DNA of 64,000 bases from Acidimicrobiales bacterium (GCA_035540495.1 DATLGL010000004.1:568-64567), one strand, 5' to 3'. Positions 2,741-31,002 are shown, counted from the first letter of the stretch. Notes: generated from the sequence alone by a model not told the origin. Made by a program: numbers and translations.

Positions 2741-2750
2741 ATCTGGGCGC

Positions 2751-2782
2751 GCGTTCGGCTCGGCTCGGTTCACGCCGAACGC
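2751..2782. repeat. 9-bp inverted repeat directly after the integrase
   Basis: GCGTTCGGC (2751-2759), 14-nt spacer, GCCGAACGC (2774-2782). Confidence 0.5.
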
Positions 2783-2808
2783 CGATTACGGGCGGTCGAT
2801 GTCAACGG

Positions 2809-3396
2809 CTAGAGATGAAACCCCGGTGGTTGACGGAGGTGAGGTGCGGCGGACTTTGTGGTCCGAACGGCCTGCAGAGTTGGTAGCCACTCATAAAAAA
2901 GCTGCTTCGCGGACAAGAGCTCGACGCCGAACTGGTCAAGCCGGCGCAACCCGTGTTGGTGCGCTGGCCCAGGTGAGAACGTGGCGTCGACGACTACCGC
3001 GACGCGGTGACCATGGGCTGCGAGTCCAATTGCAGAGTGAGCAACGCAGACGTCTGTCTCCATCCCGACGAGGACAGCGGTCTGCCGTCCGAGTGCGGCT
3101 ACGGCGGCGTGGATGTCGGCCTGGGCTGCAAGGTCGAAGGTGTGCTTCTCGTAGACTGTTTGAGTTCCCGCCGCAGCGATCACGGCGTCCGCTGGCGGTC
3201 CGTTGCGATCGGGGCGCTCTGCGGTGAGGATCGTCGGGACCTGCAGAGCCCGCGCCAGATGGGTGACCCATACGACGGAGTCGATGAAGGTGGAGAAGAT
3301 GTCTGGATCGACGTCTGGGCGTTCCCGATAGAAGCCCGGTTGGGCGTCGATCACCGCGACGAAGCTCTCCGGAGCGCTCAGGAGCGAGGCCGCCAC
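2809..3396 (-). CDS. Isochorismatase-family cysteine hydrolase
   Basis: VIDAQ, EKHTF and GMETDVCV motifs; GTG at 3396 overlaps the TAG of the upstream DUF402-like gene. Confidence 0.85.
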   Translation of the reverse strand: MAASLLSAPESFVAVIDAQPGFYRERPDVDPDIFSTFIDSVVWVTHLARALQVPTILTAERPDRNGPPADAVIAAAGTQTVYEKHTFDLAAQADIHAAVAALGRQTAVLVGMETDVCVAHSAIGLAAHGHRVAVVVDATFSPGPAHQHGLRRLDQFGVELLSAKQLFYEWLPTLQAVRTTKSAAPHLRQPPGFHL

Positions 3397-4082
3397 TACG
3401 CCGCGTTCTCGATGCGCCATCGTCGTTCTCCGTCGATCAGGAGGTTCGGTCTTGGCCATTCCTGTGGTGGGCGCCAGTCTTGCCAGGCCTCGTTGAACGG
3501 CCACGCTCGTCGCTCGACGCGCTCGATCATGCGCTCGGCCTCTGCTAGGGCGGTGGCTCGTTCAGCCTTGGTCAAGAGCCCGAGGTTGCAGGCGGCCTCG
3601 AACTCGTCGCGGTCCTTCCATGCCCACGTGAGGTCTGGCTCCACCTTGAGGTCCAGGTAGTAATCACCGCGGCACCCGCGCCCGATTGCGATCCCGACCG
3701 GCGTGCGCTCGTATGGTGATTGCAGGTTGATGTACCACCCGAAGAAACGCCAGTCCGGCCACCAGAACGCCCAGAAAGAGTGGTGCGTGGCGTGCGGATT
3801 TAGCGTGAGCACGTGAAACCTGACGGGTCGCTCCTCAAGCGGCTGCGGCTCGGTGAGTTCGTACACCCGCATCCGCTCGTCGAGTGGGATTGAGGGCCTC
3901 CGCGGCATGGTTCCGTCCACCCGAGTGCTTCCGGCACGGGTGTAGAGCGAGAGATAGCCCTCGCAGTCCTCAGCGACGACCACCGGGAAGGCGGTTATGA
4001 GGTGGCCAGCGTAATAATTCTCTTGAACCACGACGTCGCCGGGGCTCCACGCAATCGAAGGACTCCAGCACGCCTCGGGCAC
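3396..4082 (-). CDS. DUF402-domain protein (start approximate)
   Basis: GWYINLQSP, DYYLDLKVEPDLTWAWKDRDEF pattern; it is the C-terminal half of the 504-aa ORF. Confidence 0.7.
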   Translation of the reverse strand: MPEACWSPSIAWSPGDVVVQENYYAGHLITAFPVVVAEDCEGYLSLYTRAGSTRVDGTMPRRPSIPLDERMRVYELTEPQPLEERPVRFHVLTLNPHATHHSFWAFWWPDWRFFGWYINLQSPYERTPVGIAIGRGCRGDYYLDLKVEPDLTWAWKDRDEFEAACNLGLLTKAERATALAEAERMIERVERRAWPFNEAWQDWRPPQEWPRPNLLIDGERRWRIENAA

Positions 4083-4272
4083 GCTTGAACTATCGCAAAC
4101 CGGACGCAGAATCGCACAGCGCGCGTGGCCACGGAACGCGTGCGCGACGGAGGGAACGCCGGACCGGGGTGCGAGTCCAGCCAGCTCTTGAAAAACTGGG
4201 TGTGACAACGGCGAGCGAGTTCTGGCGGAAGCGAGTGATCGCACTCGCCCCGGGGCGCCGGTCTGGTATGGC

Positions 4273-4910
4273 TCAGCTCGCTCGCTCGATCTGCTGATGA
4301 ATTGCGTGGCGAAGTCTCCGGGCGACGACGTAGGATCGGCGGCTTCCGTTAGCCATCGGACCACGACGAACCTCCGCGCGCCGGCCTCCGCCATCGGGGC
4401 GACAGTGTCGGGTCGAACGTTGCCCGTGACGAAGATCGGCGTAGCGACTCGCGCGGCGGCGTCAGCGACGACCGAGAGCCGCACGGGGTCGCGGGTTGGA
4501 TGAGTATCGGTGCGCATCACCGGACCGACGGAGACATAGTCGACCGGCTGATCTGCAGCCTTTGACAGCTGGGCGCCTCCGCGCGTCGAGAGGCCGATGA
4601 TGGCGCTGGGGCCAAGGATGCGGCGGGCGAGACCAGGCGGAGCGTCGCGCTGTCCGACATGCACGCCGTCGGCGCCAATCTCGAGGGCGAGGTCCGGACG
4701 GTCGTTGAGTAGAAACGGGACCCCGAGGTCTTGGCACACCCGGAAGGCCACACGGCCGCGCTCGACGAGCGAGCGGGGGTCGAGTTGTTTGTCCCGTAGC
4801 TGAACGACGTCGACGCCGCCGCGAACGCACGCCGCAATGAAGCGTTCTAGGTCGGGCCGATCGGGCGTACACAGGTAGAGAACGCGGTTCGTGAGTCGAC
4901 TCAATGTCAT
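4273..4910 (-). pseudogene. Thiamine-phosphate synthase-like (ThiE/TenI family) gene with a frameshift near the 3' end
   Basis: VQLRDK, LLNDRPDLA, ADGVHVGQ and IIGLST motifs; GGAGG RBS before ATG 4910; expected C-terminus (YVVARRLRHAIHQQIERAS*, stop 4273) is in another frame from about 4333. Confidence 0.7.
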
Positions 4911-5170
4911 CGTCCTCCTACGGCACCCCGACCAATCAAATCAACTTCGTCGGCCGACACCTCATCAGCCTCGCAGCCGTCAACGAAGTAGCGGTGTGGG
5001 ATCCGGCGTCGGAGCGCGGCAAAAGCGCCGCACGAAAGCGGTCCGACCAGCCGACGGCGCACATACCGACGGGTCCGCGCGCGGTTGTACCGCGACCTAT
5101 CGCGCTGGAGATGCGTCGCGACGATCTCCGTCGACAAGCGAAAAGCGTGCTGCCGTAGCGTCGGCGGTCG

Positions 5171-5947
5171 ATGACGACGCGCACGTCGGTTCAGGGTCTT
5201 CTTGAGGAGTTCGTTTCTGCGCTGAATGTTGCCGGTCTCAGCGCGCAGCTCACGCCCGATCCTGTGCGGGCCGAGGAGATCGTCGCCGCCCTCGCCGAGC
5301 CGGCTACAGATCCAGATCACCGGATCGACTGGATCGTCATCAACAACCGACGCGTGGACGCCACCGTCGTGTCGGGCGACCGCGAGTGGCGCATCGCGTG
5401 TTCGATCGATGGTGAAGGTGTTCACTCGGCGTCCGCCTTCGCGCGACCGGCTCCCTTCCAGGGCGTCGCCGGCGGTCGTGCCGTGATCATCACCGGTCCC
5501 TCGAGCGCTGGAAAGACGACCGTTATGCGGGCTGTGGTCGACACAGCGCTCACACCGTGGGTGATGTTCGACGAGCTGTTCTTCGGAACGGTGGCCTGGC
5601 CGTTCCTGATTTGGCCTGACCAGTCGCCGACCCTGAGACGCGGGTTCATCGCCGGGATCGCGGCCCTGGCGTCTGCAGGCAATCAGGTCATCCTCACGAG
5701 CGGTGCCGCCAGCCCAGAGGAGCTGGACCCAATCGTCAGATCCGTCCCGACGGTGATCGTCGGGCTCGACTGCCCGCTGGAGGTCCGGATCGCTCGCCAG
5801 CAGGCGCGCGCCGACAGGTGGGGCGGCCTCACCGAAGAGTCCGACGACTCTCATGCCGGCTGGGTCCTGGACGCCCGTTTCGATACCGACAGACTCTCCT
5901 CTCTCGAGGTCGCTGGCGCCATCCTCGAACTCGTCGGCGAACCGTGA
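5171..5947 (+). CDS. Chloramphenicol-phosphotransferase-like P-loop kinase with an extra N-terminal domain
   Basis: IIT-GPSSAGKT Walker A, VGLDCPLEVRIARQQARADR lid region, DTDRLS near C-terminus. Confidence 0.7.
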   Translation: MTTRTSVQGLLEEFVSALNVAGLSAQLTPDPVRAEEIVAALAEPATDPDHRIDWIVINNRRVDATVVSGDREWRIACSIDGEGVHSASAFARPAPFQGVAGGRAVIITGPSSAGKTTVMRAVVDTALTPWVMFDELFFGTVAWPFLIWPDQSPTLRRGFIAGIAALASAGNQVILTSGAASPEELDPIVRSVPTVIVGLDCPLEVRIARQQARADRWGGLTEESDDSHAGWVLDARFDTDRLSSLEVAGAILELVGEP

Positions 5948-6009
5948 CGGCAGCCGACCCGAACGACGGCTACGCGCTGTCCGAAGTCGCGACAGATTGC
6001 TCCTGTCGG

Positions 6010-6846
6010 CTACAAGACGTTGGCCGCTCTCCAGGCTGCGACGACCTGCAAGAACTCCTCTGTCTCCTCCACGTACGGAGTGTGACCCGACCGCTTGAAC
6101 AGGTGGAGCGTCGCAGCTGGCGGCGCGACTTCGGCCGTCCATGCGCCCGGCGGAGCGACGAAGTCGTACTCCCCGAACGCCAAGAGCACCGGCTGCTGGA
6201 GCCGCCGAAAGAGGCTCTGCCAGTCGACCGCCTTTCCACTCTCGAAGATTGATGAGACCCAGTTTCCGTTGAGCGTCGCCAGTGCGTCGAGCTCCGTCGG
6301 ATCGAACTCGAGGTCGTACCACTGGCGGAGTCGGGATTCCGACTGGAGGCGTGCCCGGTCTTCATCGCTAGTTGCCGCCTCGTGGGCCTTGATGATCTCG
6401 TTCGCGCGGCGCCGACGGTCGGGCTCAGCGTGGCTCTCCCAGTACGCGGCCACGGCTGCTTGATCGGGCGGGAGTGACGATGGCGGGGTCACGGCGATGA
6501 CACCGCTGCAGGCTTCGGTCGATGCCGCTGCGAACGCAAGGCAGCCGTTCATCGAATGGCCGAAGAGGACGGGCTTCTCGCCGATGCGCTCGACCACATC
6601 GTGCACGGCGTCCACTACCGCATCGATGGTTGAGGCGCCGGCCGGGGAAACGGCACTTCCTCCGCCGGGCAGCTCGACGAGATTGACCGTGAACAGGTCG
6701 CAGAGTTCGGCGGGTAGCGCGGCAACCATCCACTCGGCCATGGGCGTGATCACGAGGAGCGCCGTCTCGGCTTGGCCCGCCTTCGACAAACGGATCTCGC
6801 CGACCCGCGTCTCGACCGTCGCTGCGGTGTGCACCTGTAGCGCCAT
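6010..6846 (-). CDS. Alpha/beta-fold hydrolase
   Basis: GHSMNG nucleophile elbow, GEYD, SGHTPYVEE; start reassigned to ATG 6846. Confidence 0.85.
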   Translation of the reverse strand: MALQVHTAATVETRVGEIRLSKAGQAETALLVITPMAEWMVAALPAELCDLFTVNLVELPGGGSAVSPAGASTIDAVVDAVHDVVERIGEKPVLFGHSMNGCLAFAAASTEACSGVIAVTPPSSLPPDQAAVAAYWESHAEPDRRRRANEIIKAHEAATSDEDRARLQSESRLRQWYDLEFDPTELDALATLNGNWVSSIFESGKAVDWQSLFRRLQQPVLLAFGEYDFVAPPGAWTAEVAPPAATLHLFKRSGHTPYVEETEEFLQVVAAWRAANVL

Positions 6847-6946
6847 GTGCTCGAGCCAAGCACGCTCGCCGAGCTGACGGCGAGCAGAGTGCCTGCCTGG
6901 CGGTCGCTCGCGAACGCCATCCGACCGGAACGACGGATAGTGGCCG

Positions 6947-7753
6947 TCAAGAGGGCGCGACGGAACCCCGCAGTCCAGCCCCATCGATCCACTCCGCGAA
7001 CTCGTCGGCGGCTTCGAGCTGCGGTCGAGGGTCCGACCGCTCCGACCACACCCGGTCGTACAACGAGATCGCTTCAGAGGGGATGCCGAGGTGCTGCATC
7101 ACTCGGCGAACCCACTTCAGCCCGGGGTAGTAGTGCCCATGGACGGCGAACAGCGCGACGAGCTGCACGGCGATCGACTGGGCAAGCACGTACGCGAAGA
7201 CGAGGTGGTCACCGCGGTCCGCCGCCTTCGCGAGCTCGGTCTTGGCATATGCCCAGTCATTGCGTGCCCGCCGGCACGCTTCTGCCACCGCGGTCTCGGG
7301 CACCGATGCGGTCGCTTGTCGGTAGCCGGCGGCGGCGCCGTCCTCATCGACGACGACCGAGCCTCGGAGAAACCCTGATCGCACCTGGAGCGTGGTGAGG
7401 TCGTTCGCGAGCCGTCGCCCATCAGCGTCCGCAGCCATCCGGCGCGCAAAGGCGTCGCCAGCGTGGTGACCGAGGTTGAACTCCTGGTCGTGCCGCCACA
7501 GCCGATCGATCGCGAGGTCCGAGGCGTCGTAGGTGAACAACTCCACCGAGGGATCGTCGTGAAGTTCGCTGAGCCATGTCCGCTGCAGCGGGATGTCGTG
7601 TTGCCACACGACAACGACGTCGAGGTCGGCTTCCTCAGTGAATCCCGAGGCCAGCGATCCCTGGACGTAGCAGAGGTGCACGTCGCCATGCGCTTGGAGG
7701 ACGGGCAGGACATCGCTGCGAAGCAGCTCCAGCGATCGCGCCAGCGCGTTCAT
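6947..7753 (-). CDS. Nucleotidyltransferase (Pol-beta superfamily) with DUF4037-like C-terminus
   Basis: QGSLASG...ADLDVVVVW (GS/DxD) and HYYPGLKW motifs. Confidence 0.75.
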   Translation of the reverse strand: MNALARSLELLRSDVLPVLQAHGDVHLCYVQGSLASGFTEEADLDVVVVWQHDIPLQRTWLSELHDDPSVELFTYDASDLAIDRLWRHDQEFNLGHHAGDAFARRMAADADGRRLANDLTTLQVRSGFLRGSVVVDEDGAAAGYRQATASVPETAVAEACRRARNDWAYAKTELAKAADRGDHLVFAYVLAQSIAVQLVALFAVHGHYYPGLKWVRRVMQHLGIPSEAISLYDRVWSERSDPRPQLEAADEFAEWIDGAGLRGSVAPS

Positions 7754-7864
7754 CGGTACAGCATTCTGATCCGGTGGTCCGGTCGCAAACCCTCAGCGTC
7801 AACGGTGGCTGCCGAACGCGACACATCGAGGCTCGGCGCGCGTGTGGCACAGATGCCCGCGCGG

Positions 7865-8278
7865 CTACTCCGGGTCAAACCCTGGTGCCCAAGCGAACTC
7901 CCATCGGTTGCCCTCGACATCGGCGACATAGCCCGAGTAGCCGCCCCACTCGCGCTCGACGGGATCTCCGACAGCAGAGCCTCCGACAGCGACGGCGTCC
8001 GCGATGGCACGATCAACGTCTGCTCGCGACGTGAAGTTGATGGAGAACGTCACGCCGTTCCAACCATCGCGCTCACGCGTGAGCGCATTGGTGGCAGCTT
8101 CGTCGGCGAGGCGATCGATCGGAAAGATCGCAAGGACGACAGATCCCACCCGGAACGAGACGTAGTCGTCGGATCCACCTTCGTTCTCGCGCCAGCCCCA
8201 GTGGCGGTAGAAGTCGCGCAGCGCGCTCACCGACCAAGCGCCGATGGTCACGAAGTTCAGGCGCTGCGGCACGGGCAT
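7865..8278 (-). CDS. VOC/glyoxalase family protein
   Basis: FVTIGA...LRDFY, REWGGYSGYVADVEGNRWE. Confidence 0.9.
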   Translation of the reverse strand: MPVPQRLNFVTIGAWSVSALRDFYRHWGWRENEGGSDDYVSFRVGSVVLAIFPIDRLADEAATNALTRERDGWNGVTFSINFTSRADVDRAIADAVAVGGSAVGDPVEREWGGYSGYVADVEGNRWEFAWAPGFDPE

Positions 8279-8380
8279 GACGTCAGCCTTGCGTACGGAG
8301 ACGGATGCGTGCGCTGGTCTGGCGCGACGTAATGCGCAGCGGGCCGTGAACCCTCACGCCGACTCGGTACGGCTTGACGA

Positions 8381-8719: not shown

Positions 8720-8827
8720 ACCGACATTGTTCCTTGGAACGACGCGGCACTGCAGTCGTCAGAGCCGCGAGCGCGCCATCCACACCCCGCGCGCTGAACC
8801 AGCGGGTCGCTGCGCCACAATCACGCG

Positions 8828-9136: not shown

Positions 9137-9246
9137 ACGCCGGCGCGCCCCGGCTCGGACGGGCGGGGCCCGGGACGGAACGCACCGGTCAACGGCGCGC
9201 CACAACGACGGGCGAGAACGATGGCAGGGACGGGCAAGCTGGGAGC

Positions 9247-9798: not shown

Positions 9799-9886
9799 AG
9801 CGACTCCCCGCCGCTCGCGCGGTTCTCCGAGTGGGCGTACGGAACGACGGTTCCCGTCCGCACGGCGGTACACCAGAATCGCGGGT

Positions 9887-10814: not shown

Positions 10815-11120
10815 CGGACGGTTGACTGCAGCGCATCGGACGACCATATCGACAGTGATAATCCACCAGTAGCGGTTCCCCGCCACGTAGAAGGTTGGCG
10901 GCGCCCCGCTCACTCGGTCTGACTCGCATATCGACCGACTCCGTCTGGATGTCCTTGAGCCGATCGGTCGGCCGAGTGAGCAGGACGCCGCCGGCACAAC
11001 CGGTCGGTCGAACGTGACCTGATAGGAGCTCGTGCGAGGAGCCCCGTCACTGTCCTGTCCGTCTTCGCGGCCGTGCGTGCCACCCACGACCAGCCAACGA
11101 GAAGGGATGGCGAGAACACG
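10813..11120 (+). ncRNA. Candidate IS110 bridge RNA
   Basis: Stems 10909-10918/10971-10980 and 10932-10938/10964-10970; ATAGGAGCT (11022-11030) equals the element right end (12206-12214); CCGTCA (11044-11049) complements the left end TGACGG. Confidence 0.65.
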
Positions 11121-12200
11121 ATGTCAGATCCGTCGCGCTCGATCACCGGAGGCGTCGACACCCACAAGGACTTCTACGTTGCCGCCGCGATCGACGGGCT
11201 CGGCCGCATCCTCGGCACCGAGCAGTTCCCCACGACGCCACGCGGCTATCGCCGGCTACTGCGCTGGCTGCGCCGCTTCGGGGACGTCGTCGCTGTCGGC
11301 GTTGAGGGCACCGGCGCGTGGGGCGCTGGTCTTGCGCGCTACCTGACGGCCGAGGGCGTGCGGGTGGTGGAGGTCGACCGCCCGAACCGCCAGCGGCGTA
11401 GGCGGCGCGGCAAGTCCGATCCCGCCGATGCCGAGGCCGCCGCTCGAGCAGTGCTGGCGGGCGATCAGACCGGAACCCCGAAGGCCGCGACCGGCATGGT
11501 CGAGGCGATTCGCCTGGTGCGCGTCGCCCGCCGCAGCGCCATGAAGGCCCGCACGCAGGCAGCAAACCAGATCCACTCGGTGATCGACACTGCGCCGGAG
11601 GAGCTGCGCGGCCAGCTGCTCGGACTTCGCGAGAACGAGAGGATCGCCAAATGCTCGCGCCTGCGCGCCACCGATCCGACGACGCCAGCCGGTGCTGCGA
11701 AGCTGACCCTCTCGACACTCGCTCGGCGGTGGCTGGCCCTCAGTGATGAGATCAAGACGCTCGACGCCCAGCTCGAGCGGCTGGTCGAGGCCACGGCTCC
11801 CTCGCTCGTCGCCGCGAAGGGAATCGGCACCGAGACAGCGTCGATGTTGCTCACCACCGCCGGCGACAACCCCGGCCGGCTCAGCAGCGAGCGGTCGTTC
11901 GCCGCCGTCTGCGGATCATCACCCGTCGATGCGTCCTCCGGCAGGCAACAGCGCCACCGTCTCAACCGCGGCGGCGACCGGCAAGCGAACTGTGCGCTCT
12001 ACCTGATCGTCTTGAACCGGCTGTCGTGGGACCCGAGGACGAAGGCCTACATGCAACGACGACTCGCGGAGGGGAAGACGAAGAAGGAAGTCATCCGCTG
12101 CCTCAAGCGCTACGTCGCACGCGAGGTCTACAACCTCATCGCCAAGGACCTTGCGGGGCGTTCCGAAGCCGCGCAGCGACGTGTTCAACTCGCTGCTTGA
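11121..12200 (+). CDS. IS110-family transposase/recombinase
   Basis: GGVDTHKD, VGVEGTG, GKSDPADAEAAA, SSG...RHRLNRGGDRQAN. Confidence 0.96.
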   Translation: MSDPSRSITGGVDTHKDFYVAAAIDGLGRILGTEQFPTTPRGYRRLLRWLRRFGDVVAVGVEGTGAWGAGLARYLTAEGVRVVEVDRPNRQRRRRRGKSDPADAEAAARAVLAGDQTGTPKAATGMVEAIRLVRVARRSAMKARTQAANQIHSVIDTAPEELRGQLLGLRENERIAKCSRLRATDPTTPAGAAKLTLSTLARRWLALSDEIKTLDAQLERLVEATAPSLVAAKGIGTETASMLLTTAGDNPGRLSSERSFAAVCGSSPVDASSGRQQRHRLNRGGDRQANCALYLIVLNRLSWDPRTKAYMQRRLAEGKTKKEVIRCLKRYVAREVYNLIAKDLAGRSEAAQRRVQLAA

Positions 12201-12269
12201 CACCTATAGGAGCTTCGGCTCGGCGTGCGCGATCTCGCGACCGAACGCCTGGCCTGATTCGGCGCAGCG

Positions 12270-12932: not shown

Positions 12933-13230
12933 GTCTCCAGCCTCCCCACACGTCGGCGCCCTCACCAGTGAATAGCTGGAGGGTGTCCCCGAACGACGGA
13001 TCGGGTCTCCATCATGCGCGACAGAACTGCGAGCGAGGTGTACAGGGCGGGCAACGCTCTCTACGCCTCGCATGTACAGCCTGGCCAGGGATTGGTGCCT
13101 GGCTGTCGGGGAGCAAGAGGGGAGCGGATGCGAGCCGCCGAACCGCCGAGCAGGGGTGCCCTCGTAGCCGACTTCCAGGCAGTGGACGGGGCTATTCAGT
13201 GGGCGAAGTATCGGGCTGTTCGCTGCCTCT

Positions 13231-14814: not shown

Positions 14815-15291
14815 GTGAGGTTCCGCGCCGAGGTTGAACCGAACGAGCCAATGAGGGGACTCGAGGTCCCTGCTGATGTCGTCGAGGCGCTCGGTGACGG
14901 CAAGCGACCGCGCGTCACCGTCACGCTCAACGGACACTCGTGGAGCACGAGGATCGCGATCATGCGCGGACGCCACCTGGTCGGGCTCAGCAACGCTCAC
15001 CGCGCCGCCACTGGTGTCGTCGTGGGCGAGCATGTCGACGTCGAGGTCGAACTCGACACCGAGCCGGTGACCGTCGAGGAGCCTGCTGACCTTGCGAGCG
15101 CCCTCGCCACGGACCGACTCGCGCGAGCCGCCTATGACCGGCTCACCTCGAACCGGCGCAAGCAGCACGTGCGCATGATCGAGGACGCGAAGCGCCCAGA
15201 GACACGCGCTCGGCGGATCAACAAGCTCATGGATCAGCTACGACAAGACCACGCCGAACGCCCTTCGCCAGCGGACCCCGACCAGGGCTGA
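14815..15291 (+). CDS. DUF1905 + YdeI/OmpD-associated domain protein
   Basis: KRPRVTVTLNGHSW, VEEPADLASAL, KRPETRARRI. Confidence 0.82.
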   Translation: MRFRAEVEPNEPMRGLEVPADVVEALGDGKRPRVTVTLNGHSWSTRIAIMRGRHLVGLSNAHRAATGVVVGEHVDVEVELDTEPVTVEEPADLASALATDRLARAAYDRLTSNRRKQHVRMIEDAKRPETRARRINKLMDQLRQDHAERPSPADPDQG

Positions 15292-15428
15292 CGCACAGGA
15301 GAATGCCGGATCTTCTGCGGCCTCGACCCGATCCGCGACGCGTCGGTGTCGCGGATCCGGTGATCCTGCGCGCTCCGCTGTGGAGCGCTCCCCGTGGCAC
15401 CGCTCATGCAGGCGCCCCGGATGTTGTG

Positions 15429-15815
15429 TCAGCGGGAACGCCACCACGACACCGCCGCCACAACTGCGGCGAGTGGGACACCTGCGACCCATCCCCAGAG
15501 GAAGATGAGAGCCGAAGTGGAAGAGTCGTTGCTCGCGAAGGCGGTCCACATGCCAGCGATACCGGCAGCGAGAACGACACAGCAAACGACGACGGCGTGG
15601 CGCTGCATCGGACCGAGCGCCAGCACGAGGCACATCGGACCGAAGTACAGAAGCCCTAAGCCTGCTGCGTTGAGCGGATCGATCCTCGACCACGCATCTG
15701 AGAAGGTGGTCGCTGACACTCCGGCCGCCGTCGACGTGACGACGGCAACGGCAAAGTAGGCGGCCAGACGTGCGATACCCGGGACGGGCTTGGCGGGCGC
15801 GGCGAGGATCGTCAT
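15429..15815 (-). CDS. Membrane protein, unknown function
   Basis: Four hydrophobic segments; start reassigned to ATG 15815. Confidence 0.55.
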   Translation of the reverse strand: MTILAAPAKPVPGIARLAAYFAVAVVTSTAAGVSATTFSDAWSRIDPLNAAGLGLLYFGPMCLVLALGPMQRHAVVVCCVVLAAGIAGMWTAFASNDSSTSALIFLWGWVAGVPLAAVVAAVSWWRSR

Positions 15816-16180
15816 GCGGAGAAGGTGCTCCCCTGGGGCCGGCTGAGATATCCGGGGTTGCCCCCAAACCCCAGCCGGTGCGGAGTCTCGTTGAACCCAC
15901 GCATCGGATCGACACGTCGCCGCTCTGTAGGGGGCTCGCAAGGCACCTGACAGAGTTGCGAAAGCGGCTGGTCAGTGTGTTGCCGCTCCGGTTCCTGGGA
16001 GCAGGACGGGAGCAGCTGATAACGCCGGATAGCGGCGGCGCCCGACTAACAACACGCCCCACATCCCTGGCCACAACCTGCTGCTCAGGCGCAGGTTCTG
16101 GCCAAAGATGGGACCACCGTGGCCCGTGTGCCGCACGCGCCGAACGGCGCGTCGCGAGCCGACGCGGCGATGATGCAGCC

Positions 16181-16558
16181 GTGGGAGTTCCGCGCTTCAC
16201 CGGTTTCAGCATCGCCTCAACCGATCCCCACGCGACGGTTGAGTTCTATCGGGCGATGGGCTTCGAGGTTCAGGAAGACACCCACGGCGGCGGCCGTTCG
16301 TGCGTCGACGCACCGAACCAGCACTTCGATGTCGATGATGTTCAGGCCGTTCCGCAGTGGAACACCGGTAGCCGGGGTCCGGGCGTCTCGATCGGCTTCG
16401 AGGTCGACGGCCGCGACGAAGTCGATGAGCTGGTCGAGCGGCTTGCGTCGCTTGGACACCGCGTCCAGCAGCCGCCTTTCGATGCGCCTTGGGGACGCCG
16501 ATTCGCGGTCGTCGAAGATCCCAACGGCACGCCCGTCGGACTGATGAGCGCTCACTAG
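16181..16558 (+). CDS. VOC/glyoxalase family protein
   Basis: TVEFYRAMGF, PFDAPWGRRFAVVEDPNG; start reassigned to GTG 16181. Confidence 0.88.
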   Translation: MGVPRFTGFSIASTDPHATVEFYRAMGFEVQEDTHGGGRSCVDAPNQHFDVDDVQAVPQWNTGSRGPGVSIGFEVDGRDEVDELVERLASLGHRVQQPPFDAPWGRRFAVVEDPNGTPVGLMSAH

Positions 16559-18895: not shown

Positions 18896-19763
18896 ATGCC
18901 GCTGACCGCACTCGCCCATAGCCGCGCCAGGACTGACGACGGCGTTGACCTCTGGACGGCGCGGTCCGGTGTGGGAACGAGAGCCGTCGTTCTCTGCCAC
19001 GGAGGGCCCGGCTCTTGGGACCAGATGGAACCGGTCGCGGAGATGCTCGACGATCTTGCCGTCGTCATCCGGTGGGACCAACGGGGGTGTGGGCGATCCG
19101 AAGGGAACGGTCCATACACCTACGAACGCTTCATCGCCGATCTCGACACAGTCCGACGCCACTGGCAACTCAACTCGTTCGTCGTCGGCGGCCACAGCGG
19201 CGGCGCGTCGCTGGCGCTCTTCTACGCCGCATCGCACCCCGACCGCACCGCAGGAGTGATCTACATCTCCGGGACGGGTCTTAGCTGGACCGACAAGCAC
19301 AGCCACGCGTACCGGCAGAACCGGCTCGCTCACCTCGGCACGCACCGCGACCGGTGGGAGCAACTGCGCCGCTCGACGGAACTCGACGAGAGCGAGCGAC
19401 GCGAGCTCACCCTCCTCACCTTCGCGACGGACTTTGGCGACGTCACCCCACACACGCTCGAACTTGCCCGGCGGTGGCTAGATGAACGATTCGATGTGAA
19501 TCGCGACTGCAACACCGAACTCGGCCGCGAGATGGGCGAACGAGAACGTTGGGTGGCGGGACGCCTCGGCAACATCAAGTGCCCGGTTCTGGTCCCACGG
19601 TCAACTCGACCCGAGGCCAGCGATCGCCGCCGAACAGCTCGCCGGAAAGCTTCCCAACGCATCGATGGCGCTCCTCGACGAGGTCGGCCATGTGCCATGG
19701 GCAGACCATCCCGAACATCTGCGAGCCGCGCTGCGCTCGTATCTCAGGCAACTCGGTGCATGA
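18896..19763 (+). pseudogene. Alpha/beta hydrolase (proline-iminopeptidase-like) with a +1 frameshift
   Basis: HGGPG, WDQRGCGRS, GHSGG; after the C run at 19594-19596 the catalytic Asp/His region (VHGQLDPR...VGHVPWAD) continues in another frame to TGA 19763. Confidence 0.8.
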
Positions 19764-20037
19764 ACGACTATCGGCCAGCGACAGGTCCGGTGCGCGAACG
19801 ATCGGGGCGCCTATGCGCAGTCACGACGGCTCTTAGGGCTGCCTGTCCCGGGGTCACAACCCCACGTCCGAACCGATCTCGAGCAACGTGTAGGTCACGC
19901 CGGCGCTCGCGTAGCAGGCGGCAGTTCGCTCGTGCGCTTCGCCAGCGCGACCGAACGACGGGTCGGGATCGTCGTTGGTGTCGCAGATCACTCACGGACG
20001 GTGCGGTCCGCCGACGGGGGCGGCCCGCACCATCCGG

Positions 20038-20772
20038 CTAGCCCTGGTATAGCCAGATCCAGTTCCCGCTTGGGTCCTTGACCGCCGAGTTGCGCGGCAT
20101 TCCTTCCGCGTCGCGTGGCGCGACCACTTCTCGCGCACCGGCGGCAACGGCTCTCTTGTGCGCCTCGGTGAGGTCTTCGACGAGCAGACCGAGTGTCGTT
20201 GCGCCAGGCCGGTCGGCTTGATCCGCGTCGGCGACGAGGTGCAGCAGGAAGAAGTCTTTCTCGCCGTACTTGCTGAACACGAAGCCGGAGTACTCGGCGT
20301 CTTCGGTACGCCGGGTGATGTCGTAGTGAAAGCCGAACGCCTTCTGGTAGAACGCGACGGCGGCGTCGACGTCCTCGACGTTGATCTTGATTTGCACGGG
20401 CCGCGCGCCTGTGACGGTTGACATGGTGAGTCCCTTCTCAAGGTAGTAGTCGATGTCGGCCACTCGAGCGGTCAGCGCGCGCTGCTGTCGCTCCAGCCGC
20501 CGACGTTGGGTGGAGAGGACGTCGCGGATCGTTTCCCCGGTCGGGTCAGCGACCGCGCGCTTGATGTCTTCGATCGGTAGGTCGAGCCAGCGCAACGCCT
20601 GGATCACGCGCGCCTCTCGAACCTGTGATCGTCGATAGCGGCGGTATCCCGTCGCCGCGTCGACCTCCGCAGGATTCAGCAGAGCGACGTCGTCGTAATG
20701 CCGCAGCGTGTGCGTCGACAGCCCACTGATCTCGGCGAACTTCCCGATCGTCAGCAACTCGTCCCCAGCCAC
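20038..20772 (-). CDS. MerR-family regulator fused to a VOC domain
   Basis: LTIGKFAEISGLSTHTLRHYD HTH, TGYRRY, coiled coil, then VOC (VEDVDAAVAFY...KDPSGNWIWL); GTG 20772 chosen from promoter geometry. Confidence 0.9.
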   Translation of the reverse strand: MAGDELLTIGKFAEISGLSTHTLRHYDDVALLNPAEVDAATGYRRYRRSQVREARVIQALRWLDLPIEDIKRAVADPTGETIRDVLSTQRRRLERQQRALTARVADIDYYLEKGLTMSTVTGARPVQIKINVEDVDAAVAFYQKAFGFHYDITRRTEDAEYSGFVFSKYGEKDFFLLHLVADADQADRPGATTLGLLVEDLTEAHKRAVAAGAREVVAPRDAEGMPRNSAVKDPSGNWIWLYQG

Positions 20773-20779
20773 GAACCGC

Positions 20780-20810
20780 ATCGTGGGGCTTCGGGTAACC
20801 CGAAGGTCAA
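20780..20810 (-). promoter_or_regulatory. MerR-type promoter with 19-bp spacer and dyad operator
   Basis: TTGACC(20810-20805)-19 bp-CACGAT(20785-20780); dyad CTTCGGGTAACCCGAAG at 20789-20805; GTG 7 nt after the -10. Confidence 0.85.
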
Positions 20811-20927
20811 GACCCATCACCGGATTTCTAGAAAGAGATGCGTCGCCACCCGATCGACGGGGGATGCGTGTCCAGCGAGCGCGACAGAATTGCCCGCCGC
20901 TGCGCGTGCGATGGCTGGGGAGGCACC

Positions 20928-22947: not shown

Positions 22948-23029
22948 CGAGCAGGCGACCCGAACGACGGTTCGTGCGTGGTGGAGTTCGCGCCAGATCA
23001 GCGGCGGGTTCCGTGCCCGGCGCAAGTGG

Positions 23030-23989
23030 TCAGCTAGCAGCGGTCAGGTGCCGGACGACCTCTGGAAGGGCCGCTTCGTGCGCCGCATCGAGGGCTTCGG
23101 GTGTGCCGCCGTTGTCGAAGGGCGTCGGAGGCATCTGCCCCTTGGGCCAGGGGCGGATGATGACGTGTCCGCATTCGGGGAAGTGGAGCCGCTGCACGCC
23201 TTCGCTCCGCCCATGGGCGGCCATGCGGTCACAGATCATCTCGGCCATTAACGACGCCGGGCAGGCAGCGTCCTCGCCGCCCGACAACAACAACAGCGGC
23301 CCGTTCGCCCTTTCGACAGCGATGGCCGCCGCGGCGACTGCCTCCGACTGTTCGAGCGCCGCGAGGTAGACACCAACCGAGCGCAGCCCGAGGTCAGTGC
23401 GCTCGGGCAGAAGGCCGCGCACCGCCGGAACGAACGGCACGGGCTCGCCCCCGATGCTCCAGCTTGATCGAAACGACAGGCCCCGGACCCGCCCGCGGGG
23501 GTCGTAGCCGAACCACGCCACTGACTGGGGAGCGATGGCAACAACAGGGCCGAAGTGATCAGGAAACGTCGACGCCGCGAGGAGGCTGAGCTCGGCGCCC
23601 TTGGATCCGCCGATCAGGCCGACTCGCCCCTGTCGGATCTCCGGCCGTCGTCGGAGCCACTCGGCGGCAGCAACCACCGTCTCGACGGGGATCTCGCAGA
23701 TCGCTGTCGGCAGCGGGTCGATGCCGAAGTAGGCGGCAGCGAGCACCGCTATGCCGTGGGGAGCCAACAGCGAACCCCACCAGCCCGGGATACCTCCACC
23801 TGAGCCGCTCAGCGCGACGACCGCGGGGTGAGGCCCTGGGCCATCCGGAACCCAGTACACCCCCGCCACCCCCGGCTCGCGCACCTCGATCTTCGTCGGC
23901 ACCGACCTCAGTCTGCGCCGGACGGAGACATCGTCGCCATGCGTACGGATGGACGGCTGCGGGCGTGGGTCTTCGCGCCCGAAGTGCAC
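23030..23989 (-). CDS. Acyl-CoA thioesterase / BAAT C-terminal domain hydrolase
   Basis: GSGGG, GGSKGAELSL, SGGEDAACP, CGHVI. Confidence 0.85.
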   Translation of the reverse strand: MHFGREDPRPQPSIRTHGDDVSVRRRLRSVPTKIEVREPGVAGVYWVPDGPGPHPAVVALSGSGGGIPGWWGSLLAPHGIAVLAAAYFGIDPLPTAICEIPVETVVAAAEWLRRRPEIRQGRVGLIGGSKGAELSLLAASTFPDHFGPVVAIAPQSVAWFGYDPRGRVRGLSFRSSWSIGGEPVPFVPAVRGLLPERTDLGLRSVGVYLAALEQSEAVAAAAIAVERANGPLLLLSGGEDAACPASLMAEMICDRMAAHGRSEGVQRLHFPECGHVIIRPWPKGQMPPTPFDNGGTPEALDAAHEAALPEVVRHLTAAS

Positions 23990-24985: not shown

Positions 24986-25107
24986 AGCGGCAATGTAGGC
25001 AGGAGGGCGCTTCGAGCGCTGGGTCGGCCCGACCAGATCGACGGGAGCGTGCGCTTTCTCAACGCGACGGAACCACACCAGCACGCGTCCGCTGCGACAC
25101 TGAGCGC

Positions 25108-25806
25108 GTGAGAGCGGTCGTGCTGGTCCACGCCCCACTGGTTGGTCCGTCGACATGGCGTTGGGTCGCCGAGGAGTTGCGGCGACACGGTCACGACGTC
25201 TTCGTGCCGGTTCTCCGCGATGACGCCGAGACGGGCGGGGAGCGGTTGCAGGATTCGCTGGTCGACCGTGCGGCTTCGGCCGTGCCTCCTGACAGCGACG
25301 TCGTTCTCGTGGGCCACAGCGGTGGCGGCATGCTGCTCCCGCTCATTGCCGATCGTTCGAGCGCCCGATCGGTGAGGTACGTCTTCGTCGACTCGGGGCT
25401 CTCGCCCGCCGAAGGAGCGTTGGAGCTCGCTGGTGACGAGTTCCGAGCGTCGCTTCAGAAGCGTGTCGAACCTGACGGACGCTTGCCGGGCTGGCACACG
25501 TGGTGGGGTGACGACGCGATGGATTGGATGGTGACGGACGCCGAGCGCCGAGCCGAGGTGATCGTGTACATCCCACGACTCGCGCTCGCCTACTTCGACG
25601 TTCAACGTCCGCTGCCCGCAGGATGGCGGTCGTCGCTATGCGGCTAGGTGCTCCTCAGCGAGGTGTACCGAGCATCGGCCAACGAGGCGAAGGCGGCGGG
25701 ATGGCGCGTTCTCGAGGTTCTCGGCACACACCTTGAGTTGGTGAATCGTCCCGTCGCTGTCGCCGACGCGATCGTCGAGGTGGGTCGCTTGACCGCCCCG
25801 GAGTAG
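25108..25806 (+). pseudogene. Alpha/beta hydrolase interrupted by an in-frame TAG
   Basis: LVHAPLVG, GHSGGG; the frame continues past TAG 25645-25647 as VLLSEVY...GTHLELVNRP to TAG 25806. Confidence 0.75.
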
Positions 25807-25856
25807 GGCGCGTTCTAAATCGAGACGGCGACCAGATCGACGGGTGCGGGAGCTGG

Positions 25857-26591
25857 GTGCCCGCAACAGATTCGCGGCGACGCCGCCGATTCCGGCCGCG
25901 TAAGGATGTGCGGGTGCCGTCGGATTCCTTCGCAGAGGTGGCTGCGGCGGGCTGCAGTGCGATTCTGGACGGCTCTCACGGGACAGAGGAGCCGCCTGAG
26001 CGAACGGGCCGTTGGGGCCCGTCCTTGGTCTTCCGCCCACGCGAAGAGCTGTCACTGGCGCTAGCCGCGCTCGCCACCGAAGCAGCGGTGCGCGCAGGCG
26101 CTCACCACTGGCGCTCCGGCGACATCGGTCGCAGTCACGTCACGATTCGCGCGCTCGAGCCCTACGTCGACGCGATCCCTGGAGATCGCCGGGAGCGCTA
26201 CTTGGCTGCTGCTCGAAGGGCGGCCGCCGGCCTCGGTCCCGTCCAGTTCGCGTTCGATGGCGTGACGCTCTCGACTGGCAGCGTGATGGCGAGGGCGATA
26301 CCCCTTGACGATCGCGCTGATCGTGTCCGCCAGCGGCTCGACGACGAGCTCGCTGACGACGGCTGGCTCGAGCGCCGGGTATTTCCCAACGGTCGAGATC
26401 CGATCTGGTACTGCTCCGTTCTCCACTTCGCCGGTCAGATCGCTGACCCACAGGCCCTCGTCGAGTGGGCAGAAGCGCAACACGGCGTCTCGCTCGGCGG
26501 TGCCAGCTTCACCGAACTCGACTTGTGCACCTGGGCGTTTGATGGCACGGCGATGACACCACGAGTCGTCGGTGTCGCTTCCACCGCTTGA
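25857..26591 (+). CDS. Hypothetical protein, possibly 2H phosphoesterase/LigT-like
   Basis: SHVTIRALE resembles HxT; the second HxT/S motif is not clear (CSVLHF); start uncertain. Confidence 0.45.
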   Translation: MPATDSRRRRRFRPRKDVRVPSDSFAEVAAAGCSAILDGSHGTEEPPERTGRWGPSLVFRPREELSLALAALATEAAVRAGAHHWRSGDIGRSHVTIRALEPYVDAIPGDRRERYLAAARRAAAGLGPVQFAFDGVTLSTGSVMARAIPLDDRADRVRQRLDDELADDGWLERRVFPNGRDPIWYCSVLHFAGQIADPQALVEWAEAQHGVSLGGASFTELDLCTWAFDGTAMTPRVVGVASTA

Positions 26592-26730
26592 ACAGCGGTT
26601 TCGGTGCGTGGGTGCGTACGGAAGAACGGCTCGGTGGGCGGCTCACCGTACCGAACGACCCGCGTGCCGCCCGTGCCGACGTGCGCTCGGCGATCTTCGG
26701 CGCCTCGATGATCGCGTAGTCAGCCACTAT

Positions 26731-27315: not shown

Positions 27316-27502
27316 GGAGGTAAGGCCCGACACGATCGACGAGTTGCGACCCGAGCCGGCCCGCCGCGACCGATCGACGGGAGCGTGTGCTGATCGGGCG
27401 CGACCGAACGCTCAGCGAGTGGTGACCAGCACGCAGTGTCTGTCGCGAGGGTCCGGATGTCGTCCTGACGCCGGCGCAGGAAGGTGGTGCGAGACTCTGG
27501 CG

Positions 27503-28084
27503 GTGCAGCCCAGTGTTGTTGTGGTCTCGGGCCCGCCGGGCAGCGGGAAGACGTCGTTGGCGGCAGCCCTGTCGACGCGGCTCGGCTGGCCGGTCGTGTC
27601 CCGGGACGCAGTCAAGGCTGGAATGATCGATGCTGAGCGGCGCCAAGAACCACCGCCCCTCGGCGACCCGCTCGCGGTGAAGGCGTACGAGGTGATGTAC
27701 GAGATCGCCCGGCGCCATGTGGAGTGCGGCGTGAGCGTCATCGTTGAGAGCGCCTTCCGTGTGGATCTCTCGAAGCCGGAACTCGAAGCGATGACGGAGG
27801 GCGCTGAGGTGCGTCAGATCGCGTGCTACTGCCCGATCGAGCTGCTGATCGAGCGCTTCGATGCCCGCCGCACAAGTGATGGTCGTCGGCGAGCGCATCC
27901 AGACGACGCGGTCCTGCAGCTGTTCCGTGATGCCAGCTTCGGTTGGCACCTGTACGAGCCAGTCGAGTTGGGCGCCCCCCTCTTACAGGTGGACACGACG
28001 GACGGCTACAACCCGTGCCTCGACGACATCGACTTCTTCGCACGAACGGCTTCTGTGCCGATCGCGAGAGCGGACGATCTGTAA
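27503..28084 (+). CDS. P-loop kinase (AAA_33-like)
   Basis: VSGPPGSGKTS, VVSRDAVK, VIVES, LQVDTTDG; start reassigned to GTG 27503. Confidence 0.85.
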   Translation: MQPSVVVVSGPPGSGKTSLAAALSTRLGWPVVSRDAVKAGMIDAERRQEPPPLGDPLAVKAYEVMYEIARRHVECGVSVIVESAFRVDLSKPELEAMTEGAEVRQIACYCPIELLIERFDARRTSDGRRRAHPDDAVLQLFRDASFGWHLYEPVELGAPLLQVDTTDGYNPCLDDIDFFARTASVPIARADDL

Positions 28085-28165
28085 TTGGCGTTGAAGATCA
28101 ACGCTCGCGTCCGAGCGCCGATTCCATGACACCGGTCATCGCTCCGGAGCGAGGAGTTTTGCCGC

Positions 28166-29158
28166 TCACCGTCTACGCGGTCGGCGTCCCTTCCTGGCGC
28201 GAATGACTCTTGCTCGTGATCCGTTGACGAGCACAGGCAGCGTCATCTCGCTGCGGAGGTTTCCCGCGTGGAGCAGGGCTTCGAGCGCTCGATCGGGTGC
28301 GCCGGTGAGCAGAACGACCGCGCCGCCCGGGCGCAGCCATTGTTGGGCTGCCGCTCCGAGGTCGCGATAGAAGCCGGCGGCGCCGTGCTTCATGTTCCAG
28401 TTCCGGCCCCACGGGGGATCGGTCACGAGGGCGTCGATCGACTGCGGTCGCACGCGAAGCTTGCGGAAGTCGCTGCGCGTCCACCTCACTCGTGGTGACG
28501 CGGCTATTGCAGAACCTGGCGGGTTTAGATCGTTGAGCCAAACCTTCGTCGCTCCGGCCTTGAGGCAAGCGTCGCCGATCGCGCCGCTACCGGCGAACGG
28601 GTCGAGAACGAGTTCGGCGTCTCGGAGAGGCTCCACCCGTGCGAGCGCGGCGCAGATCTCTGAGCGAAGCTGCCCGCGGGGCGGTCTGGGCCCGCCGGAA
28701 CTGAGTCGTGCCGCCACCACCGCGGTGCGAAGGTCTGATCTGTGGAGGAGCCAGACCTCGTCAACCGTCGACCGTCCCGTCGCTGTCGGCCACCCGGCCG
28801 CGATCGCCGTCTCGAGGCCGCGGTATGCCGCGGAAGGAGAAATGAGTTTGCCGTCGATCGAGACGCGCAGCGGGGGCGGACCGGCGCGACCGAACTCGAG
28901 GGGCACGTTCACGGCCGCTAGTCGCTCGGCGAGGACGCCGGCCTCACTCTCGGCAGTCGTGCGAGGAAATTCAGCGAGCACGACGAAGGCGTTCGTCGCG
29001 CAAGGGAACGTTCGCAGCGCGGCGAGATCCGCTTCGGTAGACCCGCGGATCAGACCGCGCCCGGTGGCCGTTGGCGTGAACACGTCGAGCTCGCGCTCAG
29101 CGAACTCGGAGACGAGCTCCTCGAACCCCGGTGGGCACAGAACGACAACGTCGCGCAC
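28166..29158 (-). CDS. Putative RNA/amino methyltransferase (Trm11/RlmL-like)
   Basis: VLDPFAGSGAI and VTDPPWG motifs; start approximate. Confidence 0.75.
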   Translation of the reverse strand: MRDVVVLCPPGFEELVSEFAERELDVFTPTATGRGLIRGSTEADLAALRTFPCATNAFVVLAEFPRTTAESEAGVLAERLAAVNVPLEFGRAGPPPLRVSIDGKLISPSAAYRGLETAIAAGWPTATGRSTVDEVWLLHRSDLRTAVVAARLSSGGPRPPRGQLRSEICAALARVEPLRDAELVLDPFAGSGAIGDACLKAGATKVWLNDLNPPGSAIAASPRVRWTRSDFRKLRVRPQSIDALVTDPPWGRNWNMKHGAAGFYRDLGAAAQQWLRPGGAVVLLTGAPDRALEALLHAGNLRSEMTLPVLVNGSRARVIRARKGRRPRRR

Positions 29159-29668
29159 GGATCGGAGTCTTGCTCCCGTCGCGGAGCGCGATGGATCGAC
29201 GGCGATGTGCACCTCCACGGCGGAACAGATCATCGGAGGGAGGGCCGTGTCCGCGACAGTGCAGAAGTGGCTCGGGTTGATCCGGAAGATGCATCTCGTG
29301 ATCGCTGGATTGCCCTCTGCCACACCTTCGATCCCTCGGTCGGCTAACGCCGTCACGTTCTTCTCGCCGCCTTCGAGTCAGCGCGCGAGATGGAGGAGTT
29401 CGTTGCGGCTGAATCCGCCCGGTTGCAGTCGTGGAAGTCGACCGGCGAAGCGGACGCCCGAGACTGGTTGAGCGGACGGAAGCTTGAGCGTGGTAGGACT
29501 TACCCCACACCCCAGCCGCGACGTCGGTTTCCGTCGTGATGTCGCGCCGACGCGAGGCGTACCGATCGACGGTTCGTGGACTGGCGCGGACCGGAACCGA
29601 CTGCGCGAGCGCGACGCGGTTGGTGTGTCGCAGGTTGGTCGGAACGTACCCTCTGGGCCGTGACGGAG

Positions 29669-30280
29669 ATGACGGCCGCCGAGGTCATGTATCCGCGACC
29701 GGGCTTCGGTGAGCCGCATCCGTCGGTAGCGGCGTTCCTTGCGAGGCACCAGCCGCTGATCGAGACGGAGTTCGAGTGGCCCAACGGCAGCGTCGTGACG
29801 GCGCGTGCTTTTGATGTCCTCGATGATCTTCCAAGTGAGGTAGTGCAGTCCGTCCGCTGCCTCGTGTTCACTGACGACGAGCACGTGGTGATGTGCGAGA
29901 ACGTTCGCGGGGTCCGCCATGTGTGGCCAGGTGGGCGACGCGAGGTTGGCGAGACGCTCGTGGAAACGGCGTGCCGCGAGGTACTCGAGGAGACGGGGTG
30001 GGTCCTCGATCCGGAGTCGCTGAAGCACATTGGATGGCTGCACTACGAGGCTGGGCCGCATCGAGGGCCAGACATCCCGTGGCCGCACCCGGACATCTTC
30101 CATGCGCTCTTTGCCGGCCGGGCCCGGTCGCTGCAGGCAGAAGGCTGGGTCGACACCGAGGGTTACGAGTTGTCGTCACGCGTGGTGTCTACGAAAGAGG
30201 TCGTGAGCGCCATCACCCCCGGGGACGCCGCGACGGCGCTCCTTGATGTGCTTCTCGAACGAGGTCCCCGCGATCTGTAG
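29669..30280 (+). CDS. NUDIX hydrolase
   Basis: GGRREVGETLVETACREVLEETG Nudix box. Confidence 0.92.
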   Translation: MTAAEVMYPRPGFGEPHPSVAAFLARHQPLIETEFEWPNGSVVTARAFDVLDDLPSEVVQSVRCLVFTDDEHVVMCENVRGVRHVWPGGRREVGETLVETACREVLEETGWVLDPESLKHIGWLHYEAGPHRGPDIPWPHPDIFHALFAGRARSLQAEGWVDTEGYELSSRVVSTKEVVSAITPGDAATALLDVLLERGPRDL

Positions 30281-30612
30281 CACCCGCGCGCGGCCGGTGC
30301 ATCGCGGCCCTTAGCGACCTACGGGTCGGGATGGACTGGCGACGCGACCGAACACCGCGACGGCTGATCGGGCCGACCGTCACGATGAGAACAGTCCTCG
30401 CTCCTGCGAGTTGCTGCGGGTTCTCTCGAGGGCCACGAGGGATGGCTCTGCCTGCGTCGGCCTCTTGAACACCACCACGTCCGCGGGTGGCGCGCGCTCA
30501 GCGAGCATTGCGACCGTCTTCGGCCGGTTCTCGGTGTTGTACCGCCACACCAATCGGATGAAGGCGAGGTCGAGCCGTTCGGGTCCGCCCGCTTGCGCGG
30601 GCTACTGACAAA

Positions 30613-31002
30613 TCACTCGTGAACCGCATCCTCGGCGTTCTGTGCGAGTGGAGCCCGTAGCCACGACAACATCTCGCGGAGCGATTCGTACGCTTCGAGG
30701 CGCGCGTCGTCGCTTCCGCGGTGCTCGGCTGACTCGCAGGTCTCCCACATTCGCTCGACAACGGACGGCCCCATACTGAGCAGAGCCTCTGATCCCGCTG
30801 AGGCCCATCGCGCCAATGCGTACCGAACGACAGCCCCGACTGGCACGCCCACGCTCGCTGCTAGTGCATTGAACGTGTCCAGCGGGTCGACGTGCGAAAA
30901 CAGAGCGATGTCACGTTTGAAGTTCGCGTCTGGATCGTCGCTCGAGACCTCACCGTCCCACCGCTCGAGGCGCACGATCGGGTCTGCGCTTCGCTTACCC
31001 AT
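30613..31002 (-). CDS. Conserved hypothetical protein (DUF6027-like)
   Basis: DPDANFK...DPLDT...VRYALARWASAGSEALL pattern recalled from actinobacterial proteins. Confidence 0.55.
   Translation of the reverse strand: MGKRSADPIVRLERWDGEVSSDDPDANFKRDIALFSHVDPLDTFNALAASVGVPVGAVVRYALARWASAGSEALLSMGPSVVERMWETCESAEHRGSDDARLEAYESLREMLSWLRAPLAQNAEDAVHE

Follow-up and report, generated by a model that had tools for sequence, protein, structure and literature searches.

An oriented family of two-block sites separates small accessory genes in an actinobacterial integrative and conjugative element

The locus and its cargo genes

The stretch of DNA studied here, 64,000 nucleotides long and called the window throughout, is part of contig C4 of an Acidimicrobiales soil genome (4.07 Mb in 66 contigs), and the closest relatives of its proteins come from Acidimicrobiales metagenome-assembled genomes (MAGs). 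It contains an integrative and conjugative element (ICE) of 53.7 kb, of the type IV secretion system (T4SS) type, located at tRNA-Arg(CCG). In the cargo part of this ICE a short repeat recurs between small accessory genes; every copy is on the + strand and lies within 5056-30357. An earlier reading of the sequence alone (the original prediction) had proposed that the tract was built by repeated site-specific capture of single-gene cassettes, by the resident integrase or a host recombinase. The comparisons described below support the view that gene modules were joined by recombination at the repeat, and they point to a different enzyme as the candidate recombinase.

The cassette genes between the sites were located at 5171-30280 from Pfam matches and public gene calls. 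In order, they encode a CPT-like kinase, alpha/beta hydrolases, a DUF4037 protein, VOC and GNAT proteins, an ECF sigma-SnoaL protein and a DUF1905 protein; then methyltransferases, an APH, a MerR-VOC fusion, an FGase, an FMN reductase and a BAAT hydrolase; and finally a beta-lactamase-fold protein, an AAA_33 kinase and a NUDIX protein. Pfam agrees with the original prediction that this is a cargo of small, functionally unrelated genes carried on both strands. The MerR-VOC cassette retains a conserved promoter of its own. Seven or eight of the intervals between sites hold a single gene.

The repeat and its orientation

Alignment of the surroundings of the copies showed that the repeat unit is not the nonamer first described but a two-block site of about 50 bp, gCGACCnGAWCGACGG-N17-19-gCGCGACAGAWy. 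Block A consists of a left arm (gCGACCnGAW), a near-invariant centre (CGACGG) and a weak right arm, and is followed about 18 bp on by block B (CGCGACAGAWy), which is a second direct copy of the block A left arm, the two arm copies being about 35 bp apart. The positions G-A-.-C-G-A-C-G-G are invariant in the 16 aligned copies, and left arms and right halves of sites are found in differing combinations. The dyad around a fixed core that had been noted earlier (CGAAC-GACG-GTTCG) prevails across the wider site family, although within the window only a minority of copies have it. Two other explanations of the block structure were rejected. The 17-19 spacing of the blocks recalls a promoter, but the -35/-10 distances are wrong for one, copies lie at varying distances from start codons and four of them face the 3' ends of genes; a conserved peptide does not agree with the variable spacing of the blocks.

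Profile searches gave 17 sites, numbered here S1 to S17 from left to right: 12 strong copies (E<3e-4, with the best values down to 2e-10), four weak copies and one copy split by an IS110 element. At E<0.3 the tract has 16 matches on the + strand and none on the - strand, and there are none elsewhere in the window. The orientation of the sites is independent of gene direction. All ten copies named in the original prediction were found in place on the + strand, and two strong copies (S12 and S15) were added to them; the roughly 14 weaker variants that it also mentioned were not recovered by the profile searches. The site is not in most spacers, as had been thought, but in about half of them (17 sites for about 33 spacers).

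Among the strong sites, S2 (5949-6004, GAACGACGG at 5961, E=2e-10) and S10 (22949-23007, motif at 22962) each lie between two convergent stop codons. S5 (9829-9885, motif at 9842) is the dyad GGAAC-GACG-GTTCC and S10 the dyad CGAAC-GACG-GTTCG. The remaining strong sites are S3 (6916-6973, motif at 6928), S7 (12988-13032, motif at 12991), S8 (19940-19989, motif at 19953), S9 (20845-20893, motif at 20852), S12 (25025-25075, motif at 25036), S13 (25824-25879, motif at 25835), S14 (27365-27414, motif at 27372), S15 (29183-29239, motif at 29194, E=9e-8 with the refined profile) and S16 (29552-29609, motif at 29564). The split site S6 has its left part (CGGACGACCATATCGAC) at 10832-10853 and its right part (CGGCTCGGCGTGCGCGATCTCGCGACCGAAC) at 12216-12250. 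The four weak copies are all located in spacers: S1 (5056-5096, nhmmer E=0.007) before the CPT gene, S4 (8291-8328, E=0.017) upstream of the VOC gene at 7865-8278, S11 (23936-23983, E=0.08) and S17 (30321-30357, E=0.17), the final copy before the ICE backbone. The original prediction had its six GAAC copies all in intergenic DNA, with the caution that the intergenic status of several sites depended on the choice of start codon. Of the 11 strongest copies, about eight plainly lie between genes and three overlap the ends of called open reading frames (ORFs), at 6928, 19953 and 25036.

Some of the ORFs in the tract deserve separate mention. The alpha/beta-hydrolase ORF whose tail overlaps S8 (18896-20041) extends about 80 codons beyond its Pfam domain, through the site, and the joining of cassettes may have created its C-terminal end. 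An Abhydrolase_6 ORF (25108-25647) is followed directly after its stop codon by a same-frame ORF of 52 codons (25648-25806), so that the segment 25108-25806 is possibly one gene broken by a nonsense mutation. An unassigned repeat at 15373-16028 matches the termini of contigs C1 (145-364) and C51 (144-571) at 83-88% identity; it breaks the assembly and overlaps an ORF on the - strand (15238-16212) that has no Pfam match.

Enrichment and distribution in other genomes

The frequency of the bare nonamer had been underestimated. GA[AT]CGACGG occurs 639 times in the genome; at the density of the remaining genome, 4.35 copies would be expected on both strands of the 28.3-kb tract, which makes the earlier chance estimate of about 0.2 roughly ten times too low. 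The tract has 13 copies on the + strand and four on the - strand, so that enrichment is confined to the + strand (Poisson P=3e-6). The two-block pattern is far more specific: 10 of its 25 copies in the 4.07-Mb genome are within the array, that is, 40% of the copies in 0.7% of the length. A subtype of the site with a GGCGG core is not enriched in the window (6 matches versus 5.5 expected). The few other strong copies in the genome cluster towards the contig ends of C6, C36 and C33, among similar small accessory genes.

Searches of 61 genomes gave a background of about three weak matches each. A genome of another genus of the same family (G005) had 11 matches, down to E=1e-8, which were on the same strand where two or three shared a contig. 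Two contigs from named Acidimicrobiales MAGs (L024 and L097) carry three to five same-strand copies, 0.5-2 kb apart. When 185,579 species genomes were scanned with the pattern TCTGTCGCGN{16,21}CCGTCGWTC, the matches were mostly single chance ones spread over all phyla, and only these two contigs had several copies. The literature searched contained no account of arrays of this kind in Acidimicrobiia or Actinomycetota.

Homology breakpoints at the sites

In four comparisons the homology between related DNA segments ends inside block A. A contig from soil run X4 that is 91% identical to the DUF4037 cassette aligns with the window only from 6932 rightwards, at the G of GAAC|GACGG in S3, and upstream of the break this contig continues into another neighbour, with a left arm that resembles the motif. 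At S7 the right half of the site and about 130 nucleotides downstream are 80% identical to contig C36 (window 13004-13125 versus C36 7222-7100, the alignment carrying the match to about 13170); this similarity spans block B and a leader sequence, and the left sides are unrelated. Contigs C6 and C36/C2 share a unit of 1.66 kb with about 94% identity from GACGG onward, with left arms that read GAAC in one and GATC in the other. Finally, two contigs of a single ENA sample (L136 and L137) have 1754 bp in common at 97.8% identity, a unit that ends at GAA|CGACGG in one of them and at GAT|CGACGG in the other. The joint can be resolved in the last two comparisons, and in both the break separates the left arm from the invariant centre and does not coincide with the outer edge of the repeat, which is what would be expected of crossover at a recombination site and not of the insertion of a small repeat. 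A tblastx comparison of the related loci with the window was too noisy for use.

An IS110 element in the centre of the site

An IS110-family element (10854-12215, + strand; transposase gene 11073-12200, with Pfam domains DEDD_Tnp_IS110 and Transposase_20) is inserted in S6 at GATCGA^CGG, and its removal in silico restores the full site, CGGACGACCATATCGA^CGGCTCGG...CGCGACCGAAC. A second copy, 83% identical and split over C36 (140-1398) and C2 (194-317), shares both the insertion point and the orientation of the first, and C6 (3135-3200) retains an unoccupied paralogous site. The domains and this sequence-specific insertion, seen in two copies and an empty site, are those of the IS110 family. 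The element homes to the centre of the site, and since two copies chose the same point and orientation, the site must present a stable and recognisable target.

A candidate recombinase linked to the site

The original prediction took the integrase of the ICE as one possible engine of cassette capture, and this was not borne out. The element lies between direct repeats of 45 bp, which are the 3' part of tRNA-Arg(CCG) (attL at 1266-1310, an exact repeat of attR at 55000-55044, within the tRNA gene at 55000-55072 on the - strand). Between them are genes for a tyrosine integrase of 454 amino acids (1376-2740, +; Pfam Phage_integrase), an HTH_17 excisionase (Xis), a TrwC (MobF) relaxase in the backbone (36005-38464, +), and a T4SS coupling protein and VirB4-like ATPase (45763-48653, -), the full set of a T4SS-type ICE. 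The attachment site of this integrase is the tRNA-Arg repeat and not the array site. NCBIfam gives it only weak XerC/XerD/XerA matches, and a relative with 69% identity is found in a small element that has neither the array nor the motif. That array-free element fits accretion of the array in the ICE, though it gives no breakpoints. The backbone also has an IS481-family transposase gene (43571-44896), between type III restriction-modification genes and the T4SS operon.

A better candidate, judged from sequence comparisons, is a Xer-like tyrosine recombinase of about 305 amino acids encoded by the unit that C6, C2/C36, L136 and L137 share. Its family scores best against XerD/XerC models. The gene is intact on C2 (725-1702, - strand); the copy on C6 (3668-4700), 94% identical to it, is frameshifted. 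A small partner gene adjoins the recombinase gene; its product is ribbon-helix-helix-like in this genome, whereas L136 and L137 have a VapC/PIN protein there. In these four places inverted sites enclose the recombinase; the site upstream of it has GGCGG at its centre and carries block B twice in tandem. A site is also found beside the gene in L015 and L138-143. Around the recombinase copies of this genome the sites belong to the GACGG subtype, as do those of the ICE array.

The recombinase family is large (at least 7,936 proteins at E<1e-30, the best 120 each reaching 77% identity or more) and highly abundant in soil metagenomes; among known plasmids there was no match above 47% identity. We examined 80 independent soil-metagenome loci from the Joint Genome Institute (L158-L237), with recombinase identities of 73-82%. 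In 39 of the 65 loci with at least 300 bp of downstream sequence, the other strand carries the core A.CG[AG]CGG no more than 300 bp beyond the stop codon, where 0.16 would be expected per window of that size, and the distance between core and stop codon clusters at about 100-120 bp. This downstream core usually reads CAGAWCGGCGGTTCGCG. Several loci have the recombinase in ICE cargo beside genes for coupling proteins, relaxases and integrases.

The site downstream of most of these homologues reads C(A/C)GAWCGGCGGTTCGCG, and its GAAC form is the actinobacterial SOS-box consensus CGAAC-N4-GTTCG. From this resemblance a link between LexA and the recombination site is conceivable.

Comparison with known systems

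With integrons the array shares small unrelated accessory genes, resistance-type enzymes among them, separated by one oriented site family that is linked to a tyrosine recombinase. The IS1111-attC group of the IS110 family inserts in attC sites, and likewise IS110-family elements land in the sites described here. Several defining features of integrons are absent, however. No IntI was found, as the Xer-like recombinase reaches only 71.7 bits on TIGR02249 (cut-off 265), with its C-terminus only. The original prediction had already held that the site is not attC, and the identity with attC is rejected: the blocks are direct and not inverted repeats, there are no RYYYAAC/GTTRRRY boxes, RNAalifold gave no consensus pairs, and as single-stranded DNA the sites fold no better than shuffled sequences (z-scores -0.3 and -0.1 for 12 copies on both strands). 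A search of the window with Rfam gave tRNA only. Integron cassettes are co-oriented and promoterless, with expression driven by a shared Pc promoter, whereas here the genes are on both strands, at least one (MerR-VOC) has its own promoter, and the array is borne by an ICE. The host is also different, being of an Actinomycetota lineage; complete integrons are reported absent in Actinobacteria (PMC4889954). An array without an adjacent recombinase resembles the clusters of attC sites lacking integron-integrases (CALIN) described in the same work (PMC4889954).

The pdif modules of Acinetobacter plasmids are similar in that short double-stranded Xer-type sites bracket modules of one or a few genes in either orientation, with a recombinase of the Xer clade. 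However, pdif sites alternate in orientation and use the host Xer proteins, while here 17 of 17 sites are on one strand, a second direct arm is present about 35 bp off, and an extra recombinase gene is linked to the site. The layout of about 50 bp in two blocks also differs from the 28-bp XerC-spacer-XerD arrangement of pdif (PMC7399989). Pattern searches of the 66-contig draft gave no recognisable chromosomal dif.

In the TnpI/IRS systems of Tn4430 and Tn5401, a core of inverted repeats is combined with direct accessory repeats of the recombinase-binding motif, which impose directionality. The order of a crossover core followed by direct copies of a motif is shared with the present sites, but TnpI/IRS resolves the cointegrates of one transposon at a single site and builds no cassette arrays. 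Repetitive extragenic palindromes and miniature inverted-repeat transposable elements (MITEs) differ from the repeat, which has no hairpin, splits 16 to 0 between the strands, and has few strong copies outside the array, clustered on C6, C36 and C33. A LexA box differs as well: here the centre is invariant and the right arm variable, and only two window copies have both arms. The array would function like an integron while lacking its integrase, its folding sites and its co-oriented, promoterless cassettes, and the layout and orientation of the sites set it apart from pdif modules.

Interpretation and alternatives

Taken together, these results suggest that the repeat is a double-stranded site for site-specific recombination, and that the tract is a series of cassettes joined, and exchangeable, at this site. 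We regard the tract as probably an integron-like cassette platform of a non-integron kind. The uniform orientation of the sites fits site-specific integration, and this part of the original proposal stands together with the marking of module joints by the repeat, while its choice of the resident integrase does not. In the mechanism that we propose, the CGACGG centre would be the region of strand exchange (the overlap), in which partner sites must match, and block B would be an accessory binding site that confers polarity. The Xer-like recombinase, itself carried between sites, would act on the ICE array in trans. Circular cassettes could integrate at any site and be excised between two direct sites, and all sites would in this way come to lie on one strand, with the genes free to face either direction. 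Conjugation of the ICE would then spread the whole collection of cassettes.

Several observations weigh against this interpretation. Eight genes in a stretch of 6.9 kb (13.0-19.9 kb) have no site between them in the profile search. The ICE does not encode a recombinase of the candidate's family, and the recombinase unit itself is bounded by inverted and not direct sites, so simple integration would not produce it. A paralogue with 54% identity on C11 has no site, and a homologue with 79% identity in L157 has only weak site-like matches. Neither an excised circle nor a deletion joint was seen in the sequencing runs, which were examined as assembled contigs only. The array is identical in four public assemblies, in which an identical-protein look-up with the FMN reductase found the same gene order. 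In five other contexts (71-85% identity) homologues of the MerR-VOC gene, those at 85, 74, 72 and 71% identity among them, have no flanking site; therefore the site does not always travel with the gene. Homologues without sites were named at the outset as a finding that would speak against cassette capture, and for MerR-VOC this is partly the case. On C51 (14801-14909) a paralogous remnant preserves the promoter and 5' end of the MerR-VOC gene (83% identity with window 20732-20842) but has no array site; the two sequences cease to match about 10 nucleotides short of the GATCGACGG core, at the left arm's edge.

Some of these points would suit a repeat of selfish nature, a small element derived from the recombinase unit as a solo end or in MITE-like form, which spread through the intergenic spacers of the cargo among genes that were never mobile cassettes: the unit has inverted motif-like sequences at both of its ends, the MerR-VOC module exists elsewhere without the repeat, and the array is stable across samples. 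Such an element should leave homology breaks at its outer edges, whereas those that could be resolved are in mid-repeat, between left arm and CGACGG, and the differing combinations of left arms and right halves, the uniform orientation, the concentration of two-block copies in the array, and the lack of any target duplication or empty-site pair found also speak against it. We consider this explanation unlikely. Another possibility is that cassettes are exchanged as proposed but by the host XerC/XerD on dif-like sites, the extra Xer-like gene being cargo or a helper. The similarity of the recombinase family to XerD/XerC and an ICE array that lacks its own recombinase agree with this, but the sites are all direct where those of pdif alternate, the two direct arm copies do not have the 11-6-11 layout of dif, and the core is tightly linked, at a fixed position, to the extra recombinase gene, and so we think a host Xer system unlikely.

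A role outside recombination was also considered, with the repeat as the binding site of a protein, such as a LexA/SOS box, an ICE silencer or partition site, or a directional signal that is read while the element is transferred by conjugation. CGAAC-N4-GTTCG is the Gram-positive and actinobacterial form of the SOS box, some copies read exactly so, and the one-strand polarity would suit a signal related to transfer. Against this, the pattern of conservation is the opposite of that in a LexA box, with the 'spacer' CGACGG invariant and the right arm not conserved; the orientation ignores gene direction, sites are also present off the ICE on other contigs and genomes, beside the recombinase gene, and the homology breakpoints at the site would be left unexplained. 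A binding site of this sort is very unlikely. As for a chance or compositional product of a GC-rich genome, for which the unexpectedly common nonamer might be cited, the E-values of the profile, the strand split, the position of all copies in spacers or ORF ends and the recurrence of the same element in other genomes leave it a negligible probability.

Significance

Integrons are the best-known means by which bacteria gather and reshuffle single genes. On a wider scale, we suggest only tentatively that Acidimicrobiia, and possibly other soil Actinomycetota, have an independently evolved platform for gene capture, based on two-block sites in double-stranded DNA and an abundant, highly conserved, cassette-borne Xer-like recombinase, with several arrays per genome, spread by ICEs, and with its own IS110 parasites homing to the core. 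A short site and a small candidate enzyme that abounds in soil metagenomes make the proposal directly testable in a laboratory host; the pair of recombinase and site could also serve as a new recombination tool. If the interpretation is correct, the array would be a functional counterpart of the integron in a phylum where integrons have been reported absent, and cassette capture would have evolved more than once. It would also explain why resistance-type enzymes (VOC, GNAT, APH, CPT and beta-lactamase-fold proteins) fill the ICE cargo in Acidimicrobiia.

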